A DNA stretch of 13,194 nt from a virus: the UHGV virus genome UHGV-1629023. The stretch is one strand, 5' to 3'. Positions 1,825 through 9,738 of the stretch are shown piece after piece (within the stretch, counting starts at the first letter, position 1; every line of letters begins with the position of its first letter). The position numbers and the translations under genes are program-made. The notes below the pieces were generated by a model that saw only the letters and a program-made list of their open reading frames with translations, made no database searches and was not told where the DNA came from.

Positions 1825-2169
1825 TTAGTCCTTGCGTAGCTCGCTGATTCTTCTGTAAGTCTCTGGTGCTTTGTTTCCGTGTATCTTCATTTCAGACTTC
1901 AACAGAGCAACGAGGGGATCCCATTCGTTGAGGATGCCTTTGAATGCCGGAACGCGCTTTGCAACCTTGTCGAATGAATCTCTGATTTCTGGAATCTGCT
2001 CGACAAGTGCAACGCATCGCCGGAAATCTGCTGCGTCATGTGGAGCGCCGAAGTGATGACCATAGATATTCTTTTTCAGACCACATGCGATTGAGGCAAG
2101 AGTTGCGCTACTGATGCCGACATCGCCAGTTGATTGCCATTTCAAAACCTTCATAGCCAAATCTGACAT
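1825..2169 (-). CDS. Hypothetical phage protein (114 aa), ea-region accessory gene
   Basis: Intact ORF with ATG at 2169 preceded by GGAGA at about 6-nt spacing; no family recognised from sequence. Bracketed by two hairpin/T-tract elements. Confidence 0.7.
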   Translation of the reverse strand: MSDLAMKVLKWQSTGDVGISSATLASIACGLKKNIYGHHFGAPHDAADFRRCVALVEQIPEIRDSFDKVAKRVPAFKGILNEWDPLVALLKSEMKIHGNKAPETYRRISELRKD

Positions 2170-2526: not shown

Positions 2527-3379
2527 GGTTAACCTCCTGCTGCGGTGCTGCTGGCATTTCACGCCAGTGCGTAACTGAGTGCGGATCCGGATATTCGGTG
2601 CCATCATCCCAGCGATTGCCATTCCACATTGCAGACCACATCTCACCGTCTTCATACATGACAATTACCGGAATTAACTTATCCGGCATTCGCTCACTAC
2701 AGCTTATCCAACCATCCGGAGTTACCGGATAGTTGCCCGATAGCGCATTACGCAATCGCTCCAGCTTCACGTATTCCTGAACCCTGTTTCCGTCGCATGC
2801 CTGAAGCCATTGCGCAGCCTTTTGCGCATCAGTGTGAAAGGCACAAGTGCGACCGTCATCAAATTGCATTTCGTAGAGGTCAGCAACTTGTTCAAACTGC
2901 GTATGTTGTGACTTGTAAGTTTGGCTTACAGGTTCGGCACCATGAAGCATGGCGTCGCTCCGCTCTATGCCATCCAGCGCGATTCGCAGTGCCTGAATTG
3001 TGGTAGAGCTATCGTTTGGGGCTATTCCATATCGCTCGAATACAGCTAAATGGTTGCGCATAATCTCAGGCGTAAGCTCTTTGTAAGCATAAGCAAGAGG
3101 CTCTGATGCATTATCCGGCACAACCGACGCAGGCGCGGCAGCATAAACAGGAATAACGTCCGATTGATCTTTATTGCTTTCATCCGTCAAAGCCCAGAAT
3201 AATTTTCCGGCCGGATGTTTGAAAATATAAGCAACTGGCTCTGCTTCCAGTGATGCCAGTGCAATTCGTGCCAGTTCCCTAAGATTTTCGCTATATGGTG
3301 AAGTATTATCACGATGGATTATGTGGTTAGCTGTATCTATGAGAATTTGCTTTTGTTCTTCTCTGTTCATAGTGGTCAT
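2519..3379 (-). CDS. DUF551 domain protein (286 aa)
   Basis: C-terminus GWISCSERMPDKLIPVIVMYEDG...VTHWREMPAAPQ matches the DUF551 signature (W-S-x-x-R-L/M-P ... THW-x-x-P-x-x-P) seen in lambdoid ea genes. SD AAGGAG 6 nt before the ATG at 3379. Confidence 0.8.
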   Translation of the reverse strand: MTTMNREEQKQILIDTANHIIHRDNTSPYSENLRELARIALASLEAEPVAYIFKHPAGKLFWALTDESNKDQSDVIPVYAAAPASVVPDNASEPLAYAYKELTPEIMRNHLAVFERYGIAPNDSSTTIQALRIALDGIERSDAMLHGAEPVSQTYKSQHTQFEQVADLYEMQFDDGRTCAFHTDAQKAAQWLQACDGNRVQEYVKLERLRNALSGNYPVTPDGWISCSERMPDKLIPVIVMYEDGEMWSAMWNGNRWDDGTEYPDPHSVTHWREMPAAPQQEVNRG

Positions 3380-3380
3380 C

Positions 3381-4097
3381 TCACTCTCCTTTGATGCGAA
3401 TGCCAGCGGCGCGGATTGCAGCGATGACTTCAGAAACTTTGTATGCCATTACCGTTTGGTAATCATCGTGAAAATCTGTTCGATGAAGCATGCTGCTACG
3501 TTCTGGGAGCGATATTTCCCGCGCTTCCAGTTCAGCAATCCGCTTCTCTGCGGCTTCCAGCTTCTCGCGCATATCGTCAACGTACTCGACCAGAGATCCG
3601 CCAGCAGGAATTTCGCACTCCTCGACCAGTTGGAAGTAGATATCAGCTGCGGCCCGTGTGTTGCTATGCCTAGCGTCGCCCATCTCACCTTCACGAAGAG
3701 CATCGCGTTCGGCGGTAAGATTGGCTATTTTGCTGTCTTTGCCTTCCAGCTCAACACGCAGCTTCCCTACCGTAAGCGCAATTTCCTCGTTCTCCTGGTC
3801 GCGGCGTTTTATGTATTGCTGGTTTCTTTCCCGTTCATCCAGTAGTGCCAGCACGGTAGCCGGATTGGCTGCGGCGATGAATTCAGCATTGGCCTGCTGT
3901 TCTATTTGGAAATCTTCATCGAAACCGCTTTCAGGATGCGCTCCTTCAATTCTGCAAATGGGAAGATATCCAACAACTTCACGATGAATTAGCGCATCAC
4001 CAGCATCAAATCTCTCCTCTCCATATTCGAGCGACCACACGCCACACGTTGCTTTTTCTGCCGCCTCACGCAGTGCCTGATAGTCAATCTTGTTCAC
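3381..4097 (-). CDS. Ead/Ea22-like protein
   Basis: Contains ...AEFIAAANPATVLALLDERE... and a coiled-coil C-terminal half typical of the Ead/Ea22 family. Likely start is the GTG at 4097 (GGAGG 6 nt upstream), forming a GTGA overlap with the stop of the upstream gene; the track start at 4130 is probably an over-extension. Confidence 0.8.
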   Translation of the reverse strand: MNKIDYQALREAAEKATCGVWSLEYGEERFDAGDALIHREVVGYLPICRIEGAHPESGFDEDFQIEQQANAEFIAAANPATVLALLDERERNQQYIKRRDQENEEIALTVGKLRVELEGKDSKIANLTAERDALREGEMGDARHSNTRAAADIYFQLVEECEIPAGGSLVEYVDDMREKLEAAEKRIAELEAREISLPERSSMLHRTDFHDDYQTVMAYKVSEVIAAIRAAGIRIKGE

Positions 4098-4555
4098 TGG
4101 CTGCCTCCTTTGCGAAGCTGCTCCGCACAATGCAGCAGGGCGTCCGTCGCTTCTTTCACCGTAACGATGTCGCCATCGTCCAGCCCGGCAACCGTCGCGT
4201 CCTTAACGAACACCGAGCAAAGGTCATTAAACGCCTGCGCCCGTACTTCAGCCAAGAAAGCGTCGGTGGCTGTGGTTTCGATATCGTTAATTTCAGGAAG
4301 AATCTCTTCCCATGTAGCGATATCGCCATTCAAATGCCACCCGGCAATTCCACTGGAGTTATCCGCAACACTCCGAACGGCTTCAATAGTTTCATGCATT
4401 GCCGCATTCAACGCCGCCAGCGCCGCGCACTTGGCCTCCGCTTCAGCAAATTTACGCACCAGATATTCAGCGTTTGTTTCGTTAACCTTTAAATCTCGGG
4501 GGATGCATTTACCTTTCAGGAATCCATCCATCTCAATTAGTGACATTTGTTTCAT
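4094..4555 (-). CDS. Hypothetical phage protein (153 aa)
   Basis: Intact ORF; its stop overlaps the downstream GTG start (GTGA) and its ATG at 4555 overlaps the stop of the upstream small gene (ATGA), so it is translationally coupled. Acidic protein, no family recognised. Confidence 0.65.
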
Positions 4556-4726: not shown

Positions 4727-5023
4727 TCAGTCATTACTGATAGCGCCATAGCGTGAGCGGTAATTACGCAGACGCGGGTCGATATATTCAGGGAAGTTGG
4801 TATATGTGGCTTTGCGGAATGGTCGGATTGATGTCTGGTAAATTCGCTCGCGTTCTTGTTTCTCTGCAAGCCATATACAATGACGAAATTCCTTTTCCTC
4901 TTTCGTTTCCTGCGGTAGCGACATTATCAGGTCGTAGTTTTTTCTGAATTTATCCAGCACCTCCAATACGGAATTGCCGGAACAGCGGCGCGCGTCGTCC
5001 GCACCATACAGAGGCGCTGGCAT
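4727..5023 (-). CDS. Hypothetical phage protein (98 aa)
   Basis: ATG at 5023 with AAGGA SD (7-nt spacer); lies between the SSB-like gene and the downstream ea genes on the same strand. Confidence 0.65.
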
Positions 5024-5046: not shown

Positions 5047-5430
5047 TTAGAAGGGAATTGAATCGTCGTATTCAGGATGATTTTGATGATTGCTACTTTG
5101 CTGCTGTTGGCTGTTTCCTGAAGTTGCAAATCCAATCTTTGCATTCAGTAATTCAAGAGTGATTGATTGACCATTTTGCCCCTGATAAACATCAACCCTG
5201 ATGTTTTCTCCGGTAATTTCTACAATGCCACCTTCAACAAGAACACTACGGTAGTAATCCGCTTGCGCTCCCGGCTTGGCAAATACAACGGCGCTGTAGT
5301 TTGTCCATTCTTTCTTTTTTGTCTGGCGATCGTAATACTGAACGCCAGCACGGATGTTGAATCCGATATTTTCCCCGGCCTGAAACTCTCTTGCTGGCTT
5401 GTTTAGTCTTACAGTAATCGAATGTGCCAT
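5047..5430 (-). CDS. ssb: Phage single-stranded DNA-binding protein-like (SSB-like)
   Basis: 127 aa ending ...SSNHQNHPEYDDSIPF: a Gln/Ser-rich linker and acidic DDxIPF tail characteristic of bacterial and phage SSB C-termini. Immediately downstream of erf with a TAATG stop/start overlap. Confidence 0.6.
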   Translation of the reverse strand: MAHSITVRLNKPAREFQAGENIGFNIRAGVQYYDRQTKKKEWTNYSAVVFAKPGAQADYYRSVLVEGGIVEITGENIRVDVYQGQNGQSITLELLNAKIGFATSGNSQQQQSSNHQNHPEYDDSIPF

Positions 5431-6035
5431 TAAGCAGCCGCTCCTTCTAATTCATCTCGTCTGATGTTGTAAACGTCCTGCGCTTTGTGCTGCTCCGGTG
5501 TGCCTTCGAGCATCTTCCACGCTTTGGCGAACGCCTGTTTAAGCTCTTCTACGGTGTTTTTCTGCATTGCTGCGTCAGTGAATGCCTTTAAAACCTGTTC
5601 AGGTGTAGGTGATGGCTTTGATTGCTTTGCTGCTGCGTTCTGCTGATGTTTATGCTCGTCTGTATCTGCATCTTTCGCATCATCTATGCCGAACAAACCA
5701 TTGAGGCAATACTTGCGTGCATAAGAGCTTGTAGCTCCAGTAACTTGTGCAGAATCCATTCCTTTCTTGCTTTCTTCCTCTCGTGCAAGGGCGGTTGCCG
5801 TATGACTGTTTTCGCCATCGGTAATAGTTGCCGTGGCTTTCACGTAATACCGATCACCAATCAACACAACTTCATCGCTGATTGATAAAAACAGGCCATT
5901 CAGTAGCGGCTTAACGCCTTCAAGAATGTCTTCGCAGCTTCTGTATTTATATTTACCGAATGAGTTGTACTGATTCTTTGGCGCGTTCAGATTCTCCTGA
6001 ATAGCTGCCAGTCTTGCGTAAAATTCTTTGCTCAT
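5430..6035 (-). CDS. erf: Erf family single-strand annealing recombinase (P22 Erf-like)
   Basis: From the ATG at 6035 the product begins MSKEFYARLAAIQENLNAPKNQYNSFGKYKYRSCEDILEGVKPLL..., which I recognise as the phage P22 Erf N-terminus (recalled, not searched). The track start at 6065 is a TTG over-extension. Confidence 0.85.
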   Translation of the reverse strand: MSKEFYARLAAIQENLNAPKNQYNSFGKYKYRSCEDILEGVKPLLNGLFLSISDEVVLIGDRYYVKATATITDGENSHTATALAREEESKKGMDSAQVTGATSSYARKYCLNGLFGIDDAKDADTDEHKHQQNAAAKQSKPSPTPEQVLKAFTDAAMQKNTVEELKQAFAKAWKMLEGTPEQHKAQDVYNIRRDELEGAAA

Positions 6036-6045
6036 ATGATTGTTC

Positions 6046-6216
6046 TCAGAATGGACATGGCCCAAGGAAATAACGCTGATTTAATACTTCGACTCGGGAC
6101 AAATTAAGGCATACCCGCATTCCTTCGCGGTCGCCATTATGGCGATACCAGAGAGCTTTCTGCGTGTACATGCGTCTCTGTAACTTGCTCTCCTTCACTG
6201 TGGTTGCAAGTGACAT
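6046..6216 (-). CDS. Small ORF immediately upstream of erf (56 aa, arf-position), tentative
   Basis: ATG at 6216 preceded by AAGGAG (7-nt spacer); stop 10 nt before the erf ATG. Product MSLATTVKESKLQRRMYTQKALWYRHNGDREGMRVCLNLSRVEVLNQRYFLGPCPF. Conflicts with an alternative 52-aa ORF 6137..6295 in another frame. Confidence 0.3.
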   Translation of the reverse strand: MSLATTVKESKLQRRMYTQKALWYRHNGDREGMRVCLNLSRVEVLNQRYFLGPCPF

Positions 6217-6291
6217 GAATATCTCCTTCGTTACCGATTAAATCTTTCATCTGACGAATGAATTCTTCGTCTGAACAGTTATCTGTAAAAC

Positions 6292-6444
6292 TCATTTCCT
6301 GCGATACCACGGAAGGTTGATAGCTGATTTCATCGCTTTATTTGCTTCAATCCACATTTTTGAATCACCAATAAATCTGGCTATTACTGCTTTGTTCTGT
6401 GCAGCACGAAGCATCTGGTGATTGATGGCTATTTCATTGCGCAT
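6292..6444 (-). CDS. kil: Kil-like small protein (50 aa), tentative
   Basis: ATG at 6444 preceded by GAGGT (6-nt spacer), overlapping the 3' end of the cIII-like gene. Product MRNEIAINHQMLRAAQNKAVIARFIGDSKMWIEANKAMKSAINLPWYRRK. Assignment rests on position (between cIII and erf) and size. Confidence 0.4.
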   Translation of the reverse strand: MRNEIAINHQMLRAAQNKAVIARFIGDSKMWIEANKAMKSAINLPWYRRK

Positions 6445-6560
6445 AATAAGACCTCAACTCTTTTCCATCCGTCACGTAATTTACGGGTGATTCGTTCAAG
6501 TAAAGATTCATTTAGTTGGAAGGCACCCATGCGAGCGCCTCCCGCGATTGCGTAAATCAT
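6429..6560 (-). CDS. cIII: CIII-like protein (FtsH inhibitor, CII stabiliser)
   Basis: 43-aa product MIYAIAGGARMGAFQLNESLLERITRKLRDGWKRVEVLLCAMK contains the ESLLERITRKLRDGWKR amphipathic core that I recall from lambda CIII. SD AAGGA about 7 nt upstream of the ATG at 6560. Confidence 0.75.
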   Translation of the reverse strand: MIYAIAGGARMGAFQLNESLLERITRKLRDGWKRVEVLLCAMK

Positions 6561-6584
6561 GGGTGGTTCCTTATGTTGGTTTTA

Positions 6585-7553
6585 TTAGTAGGTTATTTTT
6601 GTTGCGAATACTTCGCCTTTTACGATGGCTGTTATGATATTTTTAGCAACATCTTCTGATGCGCCAACCTTGATAAGGTCAGCAAGTATTTTGTTATTTA
6701 CTTCTTTCCGGTGAGCTTTATCCTTTGCTCTACGCTCTTCTTCGCCCTTGATTCTTTTTTCTTCTGCTATTCTGGCTTGCTCTTTTGCTTCAGCCTCGCG
6801 ACGGATTCGTTCAGCCTCCTCCTGTGCTTTTCTGCGTTCTGCTTCAATTGCTGCCTGCTTTTCTCTTTCAGCTCGTTCTGCTGCCTCTTTTGCTTCGCGC
6901 TGTGCTCGTTGCTCGGCTTCAATGCGTTCACGCTCTGCACGTTCCGCTGCGGCCTTAGCTTCTGCTTCTCGCCTTGCTGCTGCTTCAATTTCGGCTTTTG
7001 CCTTTGCTTCGGCTTCTGCTCTGGCTTTCTCTTCAGCTTCTCTTTTTAATCGTTCTTCATGCTCTCGCTTTTCCTGCTCCGCTTTGAGTCTTGCCTCTTC
7101 TCTTTGGCGGTCAAATTCGCGATCCATCAAAATAGCTATTTCATGGTCAGACTCAATTTGCTTTGCGAGAGCTTCAGCTGCTGCCTTAGCTTCTTCTTCG
7201 GCTTTAATCCGCGCCTGTTCTTCCTCATAATCAGTAAGAGGCTGGCGCGCCTTGGCTTTCAGCTCATCAAGGCGATCACGCACTGTCTTGCGGTTAGCAT
7301 CAATTAGCTTTGGAATTTCCTTCAGTTCAGCAACAAGGTCTTTGCCAAGACCATCGAGATATGTTTTCGTCTGCGCAACTTTATACGCCAGAGAAGCGAT
7401 CTCCTTTCTGCCCTTTGCCGTTGTGATATCAGGCACAAAGGACATAACTTCATGTTCAACCTTTTGAAGGATTTCTTCAATCTGGTCGGCAGACTGAAAT
7501 ACAGTCATTGCATTTGCTTTTTCAATAACAACTAAATCTGTTACTTCACTCAT
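6585..7553 (-). CDS. Large early-left protein with a long E/A/K/R-rich coiled-coil core; function unknown
   Basis: ATG at 7553 preceded by GGAGGA (the track start at 7607 is upstream of this SD). N-terminal globular part (MSEVTDLVVIEKANAMTVFQSADQIEEILQKVEHEV...), about 150 aa of EAEAKAKAEIEAAARREAEAKAAAERAERERIEAEQRAQREAKEAAERAERE-type repeats, and a short C-terminal tail. Confidence 0.7.
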   Translation of the reverse strand: MSEVTDLVVIEKANAMTVFQSADQIEEILQKVEHEVMSFVPDITTAKGRKEIASLAYKVAQTKTYLDGLGKDLVAELKEIPKLIDANRKTVRDRLDELKAKARQPLTDYEEEQARIKAEEEAKAAAEALAKQIESDHEIAILMDREFDRQREEARLKAEQEKREHEERLKREAEEKARAEAEAKAKAEIEAAARREAEAKAAAERAERERIEAEQRAQREAKEAAERAEREKQAAIEAERRKAQEEAERIRREAEAKEQARIAEEKRIKGEEERRAKDKAHRKEVNNKILADLIKVGASEDVAKNIITAIVKGEVFATKITY

Positions 7554-7565
7554 ATATCCTCCATC

Positions 7566-7592
7566 AAAAAAATTGCCCTCACACTGGAGGGC
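7566..7592 (-). terminator. Intrinsic terminator (tL-like) upstream of the coiled-coil gene
   Basis: Minus-strand GCCCTC-cagtgt-GAGGGC (7575-7592) followed by AATTTTTTT (plus-strand A run 7566-7572). Lies downstream of N in the PL transcript, where N-dependent readthrough would be expected. Confidence 0.45.
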
Positions 7593-7728
7593 AAAGAAGA
7601 TTTCCAATAATCAGAACAAGTCGGCTCCTGTTTAGTTACGAGCGACATTGCTCCGTGTATTCACTCGTTGGAATGAATACACAGTGCAGTGTTTATTCTG
7701 TTGTTTATGCCAAAAATACAGGCCACCA

Positions 7729-7980
7729 TCAGGCAGCCTTGTTGTAAATGTTGCAGGTATCAAGTAAGTAATTAGATGGAGCGCCATAAATTATGAATTC
7801 ATCGTTTGTCGGGTCCATCTCCATCTCTTGGCCTATTGCCATTCTTGCGTCAGTGTCATCAGCGGCGAAGCATAAAACAGCCCACGCACCCATTGTTTTA
7901 AAAAGAACTGCAATTGGCTGTGGTTTTACTGAATTTGCGTTAGCGCGAAAATCACAAATCGCACTTTCATGAAACTCCAT
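7729..7980 (-). CDS. Hypothetical early-left protein (83 aa)
   Basis: ATG at 7980 with GAGGTG SD; sits between N and the coiled-coil gene, the slot used by ral/sieB/ea10-type accessory genes in lambda and P22. Ral-like function is only a positional guess. Confidence 0.55.
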   Translation of the reverse strand: MEFHESAICDFRANANSVKPQPIAVLFKTMGAWAVLCFAADDTDARMAIGQEMEMDPTNDEFIIYGAPSNYLLDTCNIYNKAA

Positions 7981-7988
7981 ATCTCACC

Positions 7989-8288
7989 TCAAATAAGTGG
8001 TTTGCTGCCTAATTTCATTTTCTGGCGACCAACACAAGTCACACCCATTTCACTGCGTGGCTTGCGGTAGTAAATGCGATTCTGTTTACTCTCGACTTCT
8101 TCTGCCTTCTTGCAGCGAAGGCTTCCGAGTGATGCTGCTTTATCTGCTCTGACGCAACCAGAGAGCTTTAGCGCAATTTTTCGCGCCAGTCGCTGCTCTT
8201 GCATTGCCTGTTCACGTTGAGCCTGTCTGCGTGCTCTGCGGCGATTTCTGGCGTTATCGTCAGCCAGATATGTAATGACTACTGTCAT
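7989..8288 (-). CDS. N: Antitermination protein N
   Basis: From the ATG at 8288 (GGAGG 5 nt upstream) the 99-aa product has an N-terminal arginine-rich motif (DDNARNRRRARRQAQREQ) and a C-terminus RIYYRKPRSEMGVTCVGRQKMKLGSKPLI resembling lambda N (...WYSKPGERGITCSGRQKIKGKSIPLI, recalled). The nutL boxA/boxB lie just upstream. Confidence 0.8.
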   Translation of the reverse strand: MTVVITYLADDNARNRRRARRQAQREQAMQEQRLARKIALKLSGCVRADKAASLGSLRCKKAEEVESKQNRIYYRKPRSEMGVTCVGRQKMKLGSKPLI

Positions 8289-8376
8289 GTTGACCTCCGA
8301 TGATTGACTTTGGCGGTGACGCGCCGGGTGCTTATCTTCCGGTTGCCGTCGTGCAGCTGCCAACTACTCTTTGGTT

Positions 8377-8635: not shown

Positions 8636-9004
8636 TTAGTCAGCGAAGGTTAAGACGAGAATTACCTTAATGATGTCTGCTACAACAGACACGGCCATAG
8701 ATAAACCAAAGACGATCCAAGCCACAGTGATGTCTTCACTACCATCGTATAGAGTTCCGTAATCACTGGTGTAAGGCGTAAATGTCGCGCCTTGATACAA
8801 TAGGTATAAGCTTGATCCATAGAGGATAAATGCAGATATCCCTTGTATTGCTATGATCACCAGAATCATGAAACGAGCTGATCTATGCGCCCAAGCCTGG
8901 CTTATTTTTTCTGATAGAGATTTCGCAATAAAAGCATGCGCTAAGCCGTAAATTGTCGAGATTGCCAACATCCCAAAAAAGCTTGCTATAGCGGTTCCAA
9001 CCAT
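8636..9004 (-). CDS. Small integral membrane protein (about 122 aa, 3 predicted TM helices) encoded immediately downstream of cI
   Basis: ATG at 9004 preceded by AAGGGG (5-nt spacer) (the track start at 9025 is a TTG overlapping the cI stop). Three hydrophobic segments (AIASFFGMLAISTIYGLAHAFIA; FMILVIIAIQGISAFILYGSSLYLLY; VAWIVFGLSMAVSVVADIIKVILVLTF). Occupies the slot held by rexA-rexB in lambda. Confidence 0.6.
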   Translation of the reverse strand: MVGTAIASFFGMLAISTIYGLAHAFIAKSLSEKISQAWAHRSARFMILVIIAIQGISAFILYGSSLYLLYQGATFTPYTSDYGTLYDGSEDITVAWIVFGLSMAVSVVADIIKVILVLTFAD

Positions 9005-9021
9005 AATCGCCCCTTGCGTGA

Positions 9022-9738
9022 TCAAACCAGCCTTAGTTTTGTCTCAATTGCAACGCCTATAATCTTGCAGTTTCCATTGATTGGCACGAGAGGCCATGCA
9101 GGATTAAGTCCCTTGAGGTATTTATTTCCGCCGTCGATTATCAGCTTCTTGAATGTTGCTTCGTTAGAGTCAGAAAGTTTTGCTATGACCAAGCTGCCGT
9201 TGATCGCCTCCCTTCCGGTATCGAAAAGAACGAATGTTCCCTCTGGAATGCTTAACCCAACCGGTGCCGTCATTGAATCACCTTCCACTTTAAGCCAGAA
9301 CGCATTACCTTGAATATGCGCGTCAGACTCAAGCCAAACATCTATGTCTTTAATGGTGTATGGTTCGCATGCTTCACACCACGAGCCAGCCTGGATACTG
9401 CTTAACACCGGATACCTCTTTCCTGCTCTGTATTCCCCTGCATACCTTACGTTGGCATCGCTCTTAAGGCTTTCTGCCTGTTCTGCAACCTTGGCAGCAA
9501 TTGACTGGCTAAAATCAGCAATTGAGACTTGCAACAATCGTGCAAAACCAGATGCAACCTCAACGTTTAGCGCATTTCTGCCATTAAGATAATGCCCTAC
9601 CGCTCCTTGGGTGATACCCAGTTCATCAGCGATTGAGTATTGGGTTATCCCCAATTCTTTCTTTTTTGACTCATACAAAGCCTTAAGCCGCTTAGCGTCT
9701 TCCAGCTGTTCTGTCGTCAGTGATTTTTTATTTTCCAT
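9022..9738 (-). CDS. cI: CI repressor (lambda CI family, HTH plus S24 LexA-like autopeptidase domain)
   Basis: 238 aa; N-terminus MENKKSLTTEQLEDAKRLKALYESKKKELGITQ... parallels lambda CI ([34 protein letters not shown], recalled). C-terminal domain has GDSM (catalytic Ser) and ATFKKL (Lys). Divergent from cro across the OR region. Confidence 0.9.
   Translation of the reverse strand: MENKKSLTTEQLEDAKRLKALYESKKKELGITQYSIADELGITQGAVGHYLNGRNALNVEVASGFARLLQVSIADFSQSIAAKVAEQAESLKSDANVRYAGEYRAGKRYPVLSSIQAGSWCEACEPYTIKDIDVWLESDAHIQGNAFWLKVEGDSMTAPVGLSIPEGTFVLFDTGREAINGSLVIAKLSDSNEATFKKLIIDGGNKYLKGLNPAWPLVPINGNCKIIGVAIETKLRLV

Follow-up and report, generated by a model that had tools for sequence, protein, structure and literature searches.

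A phage 434 ORF114 homologue between tL4 and t'I in the early-left arm of a lambdoid phage

The ORF114 locus and its flanking hairpins

We analyzed a 13,194-nucleotide (nt) stretch of the virus genome UHGV-1629023 (the window), which covers the early-left arm of a lambdoid phage resembling P22 and HK620; its closest relatives overall are HF4s, HZ41, HK633 and HK620. The gene under study, ORF114, lies on the minus strand with two hairpins upstream and two downstream, directly before the excisionase-integrase (xis-int) module (Table 1). The first-pass annotation had called a 114-residue open reading frame (ORF) with a good Shine-Dalgarno (SD) sequence at this position, and the call is borne out. 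The ORF114 stretch matches hundreds of lambdoid phages by megablast at ~95% nucleotide identity, its product is homologous over the full length to the equally long phage 434 and HK022 proteins (96% and 97% identity, respectively), and residues 1-114 match PHROG 1229 (E=3e-51). The ratio of nonsynonymous to synonymous substitution (dN/dS) is 0.10-0.14 relative to 434, HK022 and Stx2 phage 1717, indicating that ORF114 is a real gene under purifying selection.

The 434 record M60848 lists as features int, xis, the terminator t'-I, ORF114 (345 nt; protein AAA67902), ORF55 and the terminator t-L4. In the HK022 genome the gene is named HK022_32 / HK022p30 (“N15 early protein homolog”), and the annotation of Stx2 phage 1717 (FJ188381) itself cites similarity to “ORF114 (phage 434)”. 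The window gene shares with its 434 and HK022 counterparts the SD and the position between tL4 and t'I upstream of xis, but in those phages orf55, absent from the window, separates tL4 from ORF114, and the xis-int module downstream is of another type. At least 80% of the whole ORF114 cassette is found in 910 of 5,426 complete E. coli genomes, always under the label “hypothetical protein”, and a search of the accessible literature returned no mention of 434 ORF114, PHROG 1229, tL4 together with xis, or a functional screen covering ORF114. Homology and position show ORF114 to be a lambdoid cargo gene that was first catalogued in phage 434 and that occupies the last slot of the pL operon, directly before xis-int. 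The gene and both of its terminators are already known, having been present in the 434 and HK022 GenBank records for decades.

On the transcribed strand, a GC-rich stem-loop followed by a T/U tract is found at 2240-2219, 2208-2189 and 1766-1751. Hairpin A begins directly 3' of the TAA stop of the upstream gene (2244-2242), and the TTTTGTTTT T-tract of hairpin B leads straight into the ORF114 SD. Terminator-like hairpins had previously been placed on both sides of the gene, and both elements stand, 2175-2205 corresponding to hairpin B and 1746-1765 to the stem at 1766-1751 with its T6 tract; that earlier list was incomplete in that it lacked hairpin A and the hairpin at 1819-1801. In a three-way alignment of the window with 434 and HK022, hairpins A and B fall onto tL4 and 1766-1745 falls onto t'I, the aligned features being t-L4 (2292-2322) and t'-I (1626-1649) in M60848 and the “tL4 terminator” in X51962 (HK022 int-xis). 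Homology of the window with both phages stops just past t'I. The 434 genome record OL657226, which cites PMID 6305007 for t'I, places a CII-dependent pI promoter just downstream of this terminator. The tL4 and t'I of the window have hairpins and T-tracts nearly identical to those of lambda, 434 and HK022 and are arranged in the same order before xis, but in lambda the pair brackets orf55 and not ORF114, and the stem at the t'I position differs (GCCGCC-TGAT-GGCGG in lambda, GCCGCA-TCAA-TGCGG in the window, 434 and HK022).

Judged by this homology, the flanking hairpins correspond to the known intrinsic terminators of the leftward early operon, with tL4 (a tandem pair) upstream of ORF114 and t'I downstream. 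The whole window contains 24 terminator-like sites vs 14.1 ± 3.7 in shuffled sequences, and the homology to annotated terminators is stronger evidence than this excess in site count. An Rfam scan of the whole window returned no RNA family, and a repeat search around the ORF114 locus returned nothing beyond the hairpins.

Table 1. Positions of ORF114, its flanking elements and other features of the early-left arm in the window
Feature	Position	Strand	Remarks
ORF114 coding sequence, 114 aa + stop	1825-2169	minus	ATG start; homologue of 434 ORF114 / HK022_32; PHROG 1229
Shine-Dalgarno sequence GGAG	2180-2177	minus	7 nt 5' of ATG (2169-2167); kept in 434 and HK022
tL4 hairpin A + U-rich tail	2240-2211, stem 2240-2219	minus	9 pairs, -13.1 kcal/mol, z -5.6; also in lambda
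tL4 hairpin B + TTTTGTTTT tract	2208-2183, stem 2208-2189	minus	8 pairs, -11.9 kcal/mol, z -4.2
t'I terminator + T6 tract	1766-1745, stem 1766-1751	minus	-8.3 kcal/mol, z -2.6; immediately upstream of xis leader
5'-end relic of P22-type xis, HSLTLDEACSFLKISRPT	1823-1770	minus	54 nt, start codon missing; directly 3' of ORF114 stop
Hairpin without T-tract	1819-1801	minus	inside xis relic, downstream of ORF114 stop
xis-like gene, 66 aa	1500-1700	minus	PHROG 66 excisionase; next gene downstream of ORF114; unlike 434 / HK022 xis
Tyrosine integrase	93-1286	minus	
Ea22-like gene	3381-4130		
Abc2 gene	4727-5023		
Erf gene	5430-6065		
N-like antitermination protein gene	7989-8363	minus	PHROG 271
nutL-like site	8416-8377	minus	boxA GCTCTTTAA 8416-8408; boxB hairpin CCCGC-CGAAAT-GCGGG 8392-8377
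pL-like promoter	8491-8463	minus	TTTACA-17-TATTCT

Cassettes in the slot upstream of xis

The interval between tL4 and xis (the pre-xis slot) is occupied differently among related phages. The order in lambda is ea8.5, tL4 (both hairpins), orf55, GCCGCCTGATGGCGG-T6 and pI/xis, and that in 434 and HK022 is tL4, ORF55, the lambda-type GCCGCCTGATGGCGG hairpin, ORF114, GCCGCATCAATGCGG-T5 (the annotated t'I) and pI/xis. HF4s, the closest relative of the window overall, has tL4, ORF55, a hairpin and xis with ORF114 absent; HZ41 has the 3' end of ORF55, a hairpin, ORF114, t'I and xis; and the window has tL4, ORF114, t'I and xis. The slot is filled by orf55 only (lambda, HF4s), by ORF114 only (the window, Stx2 phage 1717, mEp234) or by both (434, HK022).

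In the phages compared, the cassette joint always falls within a short module composed of a hairpin, a T-tract and “ATGGAGA”, which includes the SD. The joint at which orf55 drops out of the window relative to 434, HK022 and lambda lies at 2183-2208 (hairpin B) and looks like the product of recombination between paralogous terminator modules. At least 12 phage records contain the 76-nt window-type junction at 100% identity, among them Stx2 phage 1717, phage 2851, mEp234, several Stx2a phages and Salmonella phage g341c. The same terminators bracket orf55 in lambda and HF4s and therefore go with the pre-xis slot, not with ORF114, and the aligned genomes show the hairpin/T-tract/SD modules at the gene borders as the points of cassette exchange. 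Clark et al. (2001, as cited in PMC3233612) proposed that lambdoid phages recombine at conserved boundary sequences, and the pattern of the window slot fits this model of lambdoid mosaicism.

Brackets that are functionally equivalent (hairpin, T-tract and SD) but differ in stem sequence surround more distant homologues. The homologue in Cronobacter phage ENT47670 (58% identity) is preceded by CCCGCTTCGGCGGG-T6-ATTGGAGA-ATG and followed by GCCGCCTGATGGCGGC-T6-SD-ATG(xis), and the one in Mannheimia phage 1152AP2 (33% identity) lies between two annotated rho-independent terminators, just before the integrase. Stx2 phage 1717 contains a third version of the element (GCCGCTATATGGCGG-TTTCTTTTT) before a small AlpA-like ORF. 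This ORF (2940-3170 of the FJ188381 stretch analyzed, MTDTSLIPEKEVMNKLGVSSRQTIWNYTKRHGFPKPV...), which is unannotated, follows ORF114 with its own hairpin, T-tract and SD and is AlpA/excisionase-like in appearance.

The segment between the ORF114 stop codon and t'I retains the 5' end of another xis gene. Its translation, HSLTLDEACSFLKISRPT, has 17 of 18 residues in common with positions 4-21 of the P22-type Xis encoded by Salmonella phage SPN9CC, and the ATG-GAA-TCA start of xis is absent. Phages 434, HK022 and Stx2 phage 1717 carry this relic as well. In SPN9CC itself an intact xis begins 4 nt after the ORF114 homologue (61% identity), with no terminator. The hairpin at 1819-1801 lies in the relic and also inside the intact xis gene, and thus is not a terminator. 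On the simplest reading of these alignments, lambda-like genomes acquired the cassette from a P22-like genome in which ORF114 directly precedes xis, by a recombination event that would have had one end inside xis and the other in a terminator, so that the relic would record the direction of one cassette transfer. As a sequence feature ORF114 changes nothing, the exact arrangement recurring in many sequenced Stx, mEp and P22-like phages; the locus instead provides a clean worked example of terminator/SD boundary modules before xis serving as joints for single-gene cassette swaps among lambda-like, HK022-like, Stx and P22-like phages.

Proposed transcription of ORF114 within the pL operon

The gene order of the window is integrase, excisionase-like gene, ORF114, a PHROG-625 gene, DUF551, Ea22-like, DUF2737, Abc2, SSB-like and Erf, followed beyond Erf by the N-like antiterminator, a cI-type repressor, CII, O and a DnaB-type helicase. 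Together with the N-like gene, the window contains a pL-like promoter and a boxA-boxB site that, on its resemblance to lambdoid nut sites, we take to be nutL. Additional intrinsic-terminator-like sites occur within the operon at 7739 and 7594.

A sigma-70 scan of the minus strand over 2170-2300 returned no promoter-like site, and the gap of only ~10 nt from the T-tract of hairpin B to the SD leaves no space for one. Transcription from any promoter that overlaps the upstream gene would still have to pass both tL4 hairpins. The GC content of ORF114 (0.46-0.49) resembles that of its flanks (0.45-0.50). Given that no promoter of its own was found, we infer that ORF114 is expressed only by antiterminated polymerase reading through tL4. 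In the proposed mechanism RNA polymerase would start at pL, become modified by the N-like protein at nutL, pass tL4, transcribe ORF114 and continue through t'I into xis-int. ORF114 would then belong to the delayed-early genes and depend on antitermination, sharing its transcript with the upstream ea block and the downstream xis-int genes, and tL4 and t'I would gate its expression to the delayed-early phase without creating an independent unit. The proposal of the first-pass annotation that the two hairpins insulate ORF114 as a separately regulated accessory unit is not supported, in view of the empty promoter scan, the presence of the N-like gene, nutL and pL, and the occurrence of the same terminators around orf55 in lambda and HF4s.

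Two observations concern the sequence immediately downstream of t'I. Two copies of a 21-nt sequence (AACCNGNNAATCAGGCNNTAA; 76% identity, spaced by 59 nt; 1668-1688 and 1727-1747 in plus-strand coordinates) form a direct repeat that spans the t'I tail and the xis start. On the minus strand after t'I the window reads TTGC-N5-TTGC, compared to TTGC-N6-TTGC in the annotated CII site of the 434 pI promoter, and the pI-equivalent of the window xis-int module may be organized differently from that of 434.

The ORF114 protein family and competing explanations

The AlphaFold2 model of the ORF114 protein (predicted local distance difference test score, pLDDT, 93.5; predicted template modeling score 0.86) contains seven helices (residues 3-12, 19-28, 46-58, 60-72, 74-81, 83-97 and 102-113). 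The protein has an isoelectric point of 9.2, a net charge of +4 and no hydrophobic segment, and isoelectric points across the family range from 4.5 to 10.1 with a median of 6.1. An exhaustive profile search collected 2,829 representative clusters at E≤1e-3, 611 of them at E≤1e-10. The earlier statement that the product has no nameable family holds, the window protein having no match in Pfam, NCBIfam or PADLOC and PHROG 1229 being listed as “unknown function”. Pfam returned nothing for 76 diverse members, the PDB returned no match to the family by sequence, profile or fold, and the family members scanned or listed have no Pfam match on the domain and no name besides “hypothetical”. The follow-up by remote homology and structure prediction that had been proposed with that statement thus gave a confident model and no relative of known fold. 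Together these searches and the model show ORF114 as a predicted soluble seven-helix protein from an unnamed phage family of very large size, for which no relative with a known fold could be detected, and the fold is apparently new.

Within this family a set of mostly polar residues is sharply conserved. Across the 76 sequences of alignment A5, in which column identity averages 26%, S20, P43, D45, D48, R51, C52 and W83 are invariant and W11, G18, S21, L55 and P60 nearly so. The resulting signature (W11, G18-x-S20-S21, P43-x-D45-P-x-D48-F-x-R51-C52, P60-E61 and W83-D84) is present in full in the window protein and is invariant or nearly so in 143 distant members as well as in A5. That two Asp residues, one Arg and one Cys never vary across phyla suggests a site for binding or catalysis, for which a predicted pocket formed by S20/S21, D45, D48, R51 and C52 is the likely location, and the protein would bind or chemically modify a target that is conserved across bacterial phyla.

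Homologues are distributed well beyond the lambdoid phages. They occur in temperate phages and also in Nonanavirus PJ16 and Solent, 60-kb Vibrio phages and Gordonia, Arthrobacter and Clavibacter phages, which we take to be virulent, and a distant homologue (~27% identity) is found on ~109 Pseudomonas megaplasmid records. On the P. aeruginosa megaplasmid p519119-DIM (5995-7757 of the stretch analyzed) the homologue lies 126 nt upstream of an orphan site-specific DNA methyltransferase, with an SRAP peptidase gene and a second N6-methylase nearby. In Vibrio phage K29a (OZ195781; 3372-3866 of the stretch analyzed) a member with the complete W...GSSS...HPHDPDDLNRC...NWD signature lies in antisense orientation as an insertion that separates the tape-measure gene from adjacent tail-module genes and is followed by a bidirectional terminator-like hairpin (3845-3866), which is a classic accessory-gene position. 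The neighborhoods are early replication/recombination or accessory regions, with neighbors that include RdgC, a ParB-like protein and SNF2 helicase, primase, a DUF3799 exonuclease and AAA_23 ATPase, PAPS reductase, dUTPase_2 and DUF4031; a pairing with RdgC was apparent at first and was not reproduced. Among 74 IMG/VR loci an integrase-like match was present in 13, in every case downstream and in 12 of the 13 co-oriented, and the flank was cut by the contig end downstream in 29 loci vs upstream in 4. In temperate phages the gene is systematically near the integrase end.

Several fusions and chimeric ORFs were observed among family members. P0166 (558 aa, on a 1.9-kb metagenomic contig) carries an ORF114-like domain at the C-terminus of a CCA-adding/polyA-polymerase-HD enzyme and, as a single instance, is the sole fusion with a domain of known biochemistry. 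The N-terminus of P0104 is MazG-like by eye with no Pfam match, and P0066 is a tandem duplication of the ORF114-like domain, which hints at a homodimer. In E. coli prophages, chimeric ORFs (P0015, P0017, P0029, P0036, P0050, P0052, P0062 and P0244) combine stretches of ORF114 with Ea22-like, DUF550 (dATP/dGTP pyrophosphohydrolase), Erf or Kil sequences; considered as functional fusions these were rejected, as they look like deletion products in decaying prophages instead.

The account that emerges, in which ORF114 is a known cargo gene in a terminator-bounded pre-xis slot, transcribed as part of an N-antiterminated pL operon and encoding a member of a large, uncharacterized and apparently new-fold family, is in our judgment probable. 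Several points weigh against parts of it. The termination efficiency of the hairpins is argued from homology and annotation, and the read-through and N-dependence from homology, annotation and anatomy; the downstream terminator is missing in the P22-like phage SPN9CC, so that the bracket is not universal. The promoter scan covered the sigma-70 consensus, and a weak or activator-dependent promoter overlapping the upstream gene is possible. Many of the conserved residues (S20/S21, D45/D48, P60/E61 and D84) are located at predicted helix N-termini, where they could be structural caps and not a functional pocket. BLAST clustering of 12 annotated contexts and the 74 IMG/VR loci revealed no conserved partner gene, and no informative domain fusion was found, the extensions of the 38 extended proteins being mostly unrelated to one another and without Pfam or PHROG annotation.

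A very different explanation, in which ORF114 is a moron-like unit rendered autonomous and separately regulated by its two terminators and encodes an anti-restriction or anti-defense protein, draws on the terminator at either side of the gene, on its behavior as a presence/absence cassette and on the K29a homologue, a stand-alone antisense insertion in the tail module with its own bidirectional terminator. DNA methyltransferases, some of them orphans, or a Lar-like gene also lie close to homologues in several elements, but this association is loose, with a methyltransferase-panel match within 5 kb in 15 of the 74 IMG/VR loci, never closer than 690 bp and with no background control. Morons, as reportedly described for HK97 and HK022 by Juhala and colleagues in 2000, are promoter-gene-terminator insertions. 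ORF114 resembles them as a single dispensable gene with a terminator downstream that is present in some relatives (HZ41, 434, HK022, Stx2 phage 1717) and absent from others (HF4s, lambda), and the K29a homologue is genuinely moron-like, but in the window no promoter was found between tL4 and the ATG, the base composition does not deviate from that of the neighboring genes, the gene sits inside an early operon with its N/nutL system present, and the same terminators flank orf55 in lambda and HF4s. With Ocr, ArdA, Ral/Lar and the nucleotide sponges Acb2 and Tad1/2 the ORF114 protein shares small size, early expression and a sporadic, accessory distribution, but it differs in not being acidic. 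An acidic DNA mimic of the Ocr/ArdA type is ruled out by charge, the protein being basic and the family not acidic, and no sequence or fold match to any solved anti-defense protein was found. An anti-defense role is a possibility for which the one line of positive evidence is the accessory, mobile character of the gene; the combination of an autonomous unit and an anti-defense product is very improbable.

It is also rather improbable, if slightly less so, that ORF114 is an integration/excision accessory factor, acting like other exo-xis genes as a helper or regulator of Xis/Int or as a regulator of the lysis-lysogeny decision. The gene immediately precedes xis/int modules of at least five types (434/HK022, the window, P22-like SPN9CC and ENT47670, Stx2 phage 1717, Mannheimia and Burkholderia), every detectable integrase in the IMG/VR loci is downstream of it, and, lying in the pL operon with the recombination genes (exo/bet or erf) to one side and xis to the other, it is placed like the exo-xis genes, with which it has in common the genomic region, the logic of pL-driven early expression and a small dispensable product of unclear function. 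Other exo-xis genes alter the lysis-lysogeny balance (PMC8614690, PMC10789677). However, homologues are found in records with no annotated integrase in the stretch viewed (Nonanavirus PJ16, Vibrio D79), others are embedded in a tail module, carried by megaplasmids or flanked by a recombinase gene and an exonuclease gene, and a pre-xis slot that is a cargo hotspot can itself account for the position. Phi24B, the phage behind the exo-xis phenotypes, does not carry ORF114, no sequence relation between the exo-xis proteins and ORF114 was seen, and ORF114 is not among the proteins discussed in the accessible part of the exo-xis modeling paper (PMC8614690). For the hairpins, a mainly non-terminator role, either in stabilizing or processing mRNA 3'/5' ends or as boundary sequences that target recombination to gene borders, would be consistent with the recurrence of the hairpin/T-tract/SD module at successive gene borders, with cassette joints located inside these modules, with the three versions of a GCCGC-loop-GCGG-T-rich element upstream of three different xis genes, and with the boundary-sequence recombination proposed for lambdoid phages. 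The hairpins nevertheless have canonical intrinsic-terminator anatomy and are annotated as terminators, in the case of t'I with a literature citation in OL657226. We regard this role as unlikely to be the main one, and it and termination are not mutually exclusive.

For ORF114 as a cargo gene of the antiterminated pL operon, we infer a role in a dispensable early interaction with the host. Anti-defense or host takeover on the one hand and modulation of replication or recombination on the other are equally tentative candidates for its function, and control of lysogeny or excision is a distinctly weaker one, with some probability left for roles of another kind. A broader and more speculative idea, which we consider unlikely, is that the family constitutes an unrecognized, phylum-spanning class of phage and plasmid effectors with an all-helical new fold, in which the S-S...P-x-D-P-x-D-F-x-R-C pocket, catalytic or ligand-sequestering, neutralizes a conserved bacterial immune or DNA-surveillance function. 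The sporadic, cassette-like spread of the family in the pre-xis slot, as an antisense tail-module insertion and beside orphan methyltransferases on Pseudomonas megaplasmids would fit such an effector. The family is one of the larger phage families still without a Pfam model, a solved structure or a function, and with its sharply conserved polar motif it is legitimate phage “dark matter”. Carried by about one sixth of complete E. coli genomes, including Stx phages, ORF114 is a reasonable and cheap target for a genetic test.

Two further ORFs on the minus strand of the window lie apart from ORF114. A 340-aa ORF (6585-7607) between the N region and erf matches only PHROGs of unknown function (1376, 21365 and 17211), and Pfam and PADLOC returned no match for it. 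A strong terminator-like hairpin (7594-7573, T7) is located inside the 5' end of this ORF as listed, and its true start may thus lie further downstream. A 129-aa ORF (8636-9025; PHROG 6534, function unknown), likewise with no match in Pfam or PADLOC, lies directly downstream of the cI-type repressor gene, its start overlapping the repressor stop. In lambdoid prophages the position after cI is often taken by lysogen-expressed exclusion or defense genes.

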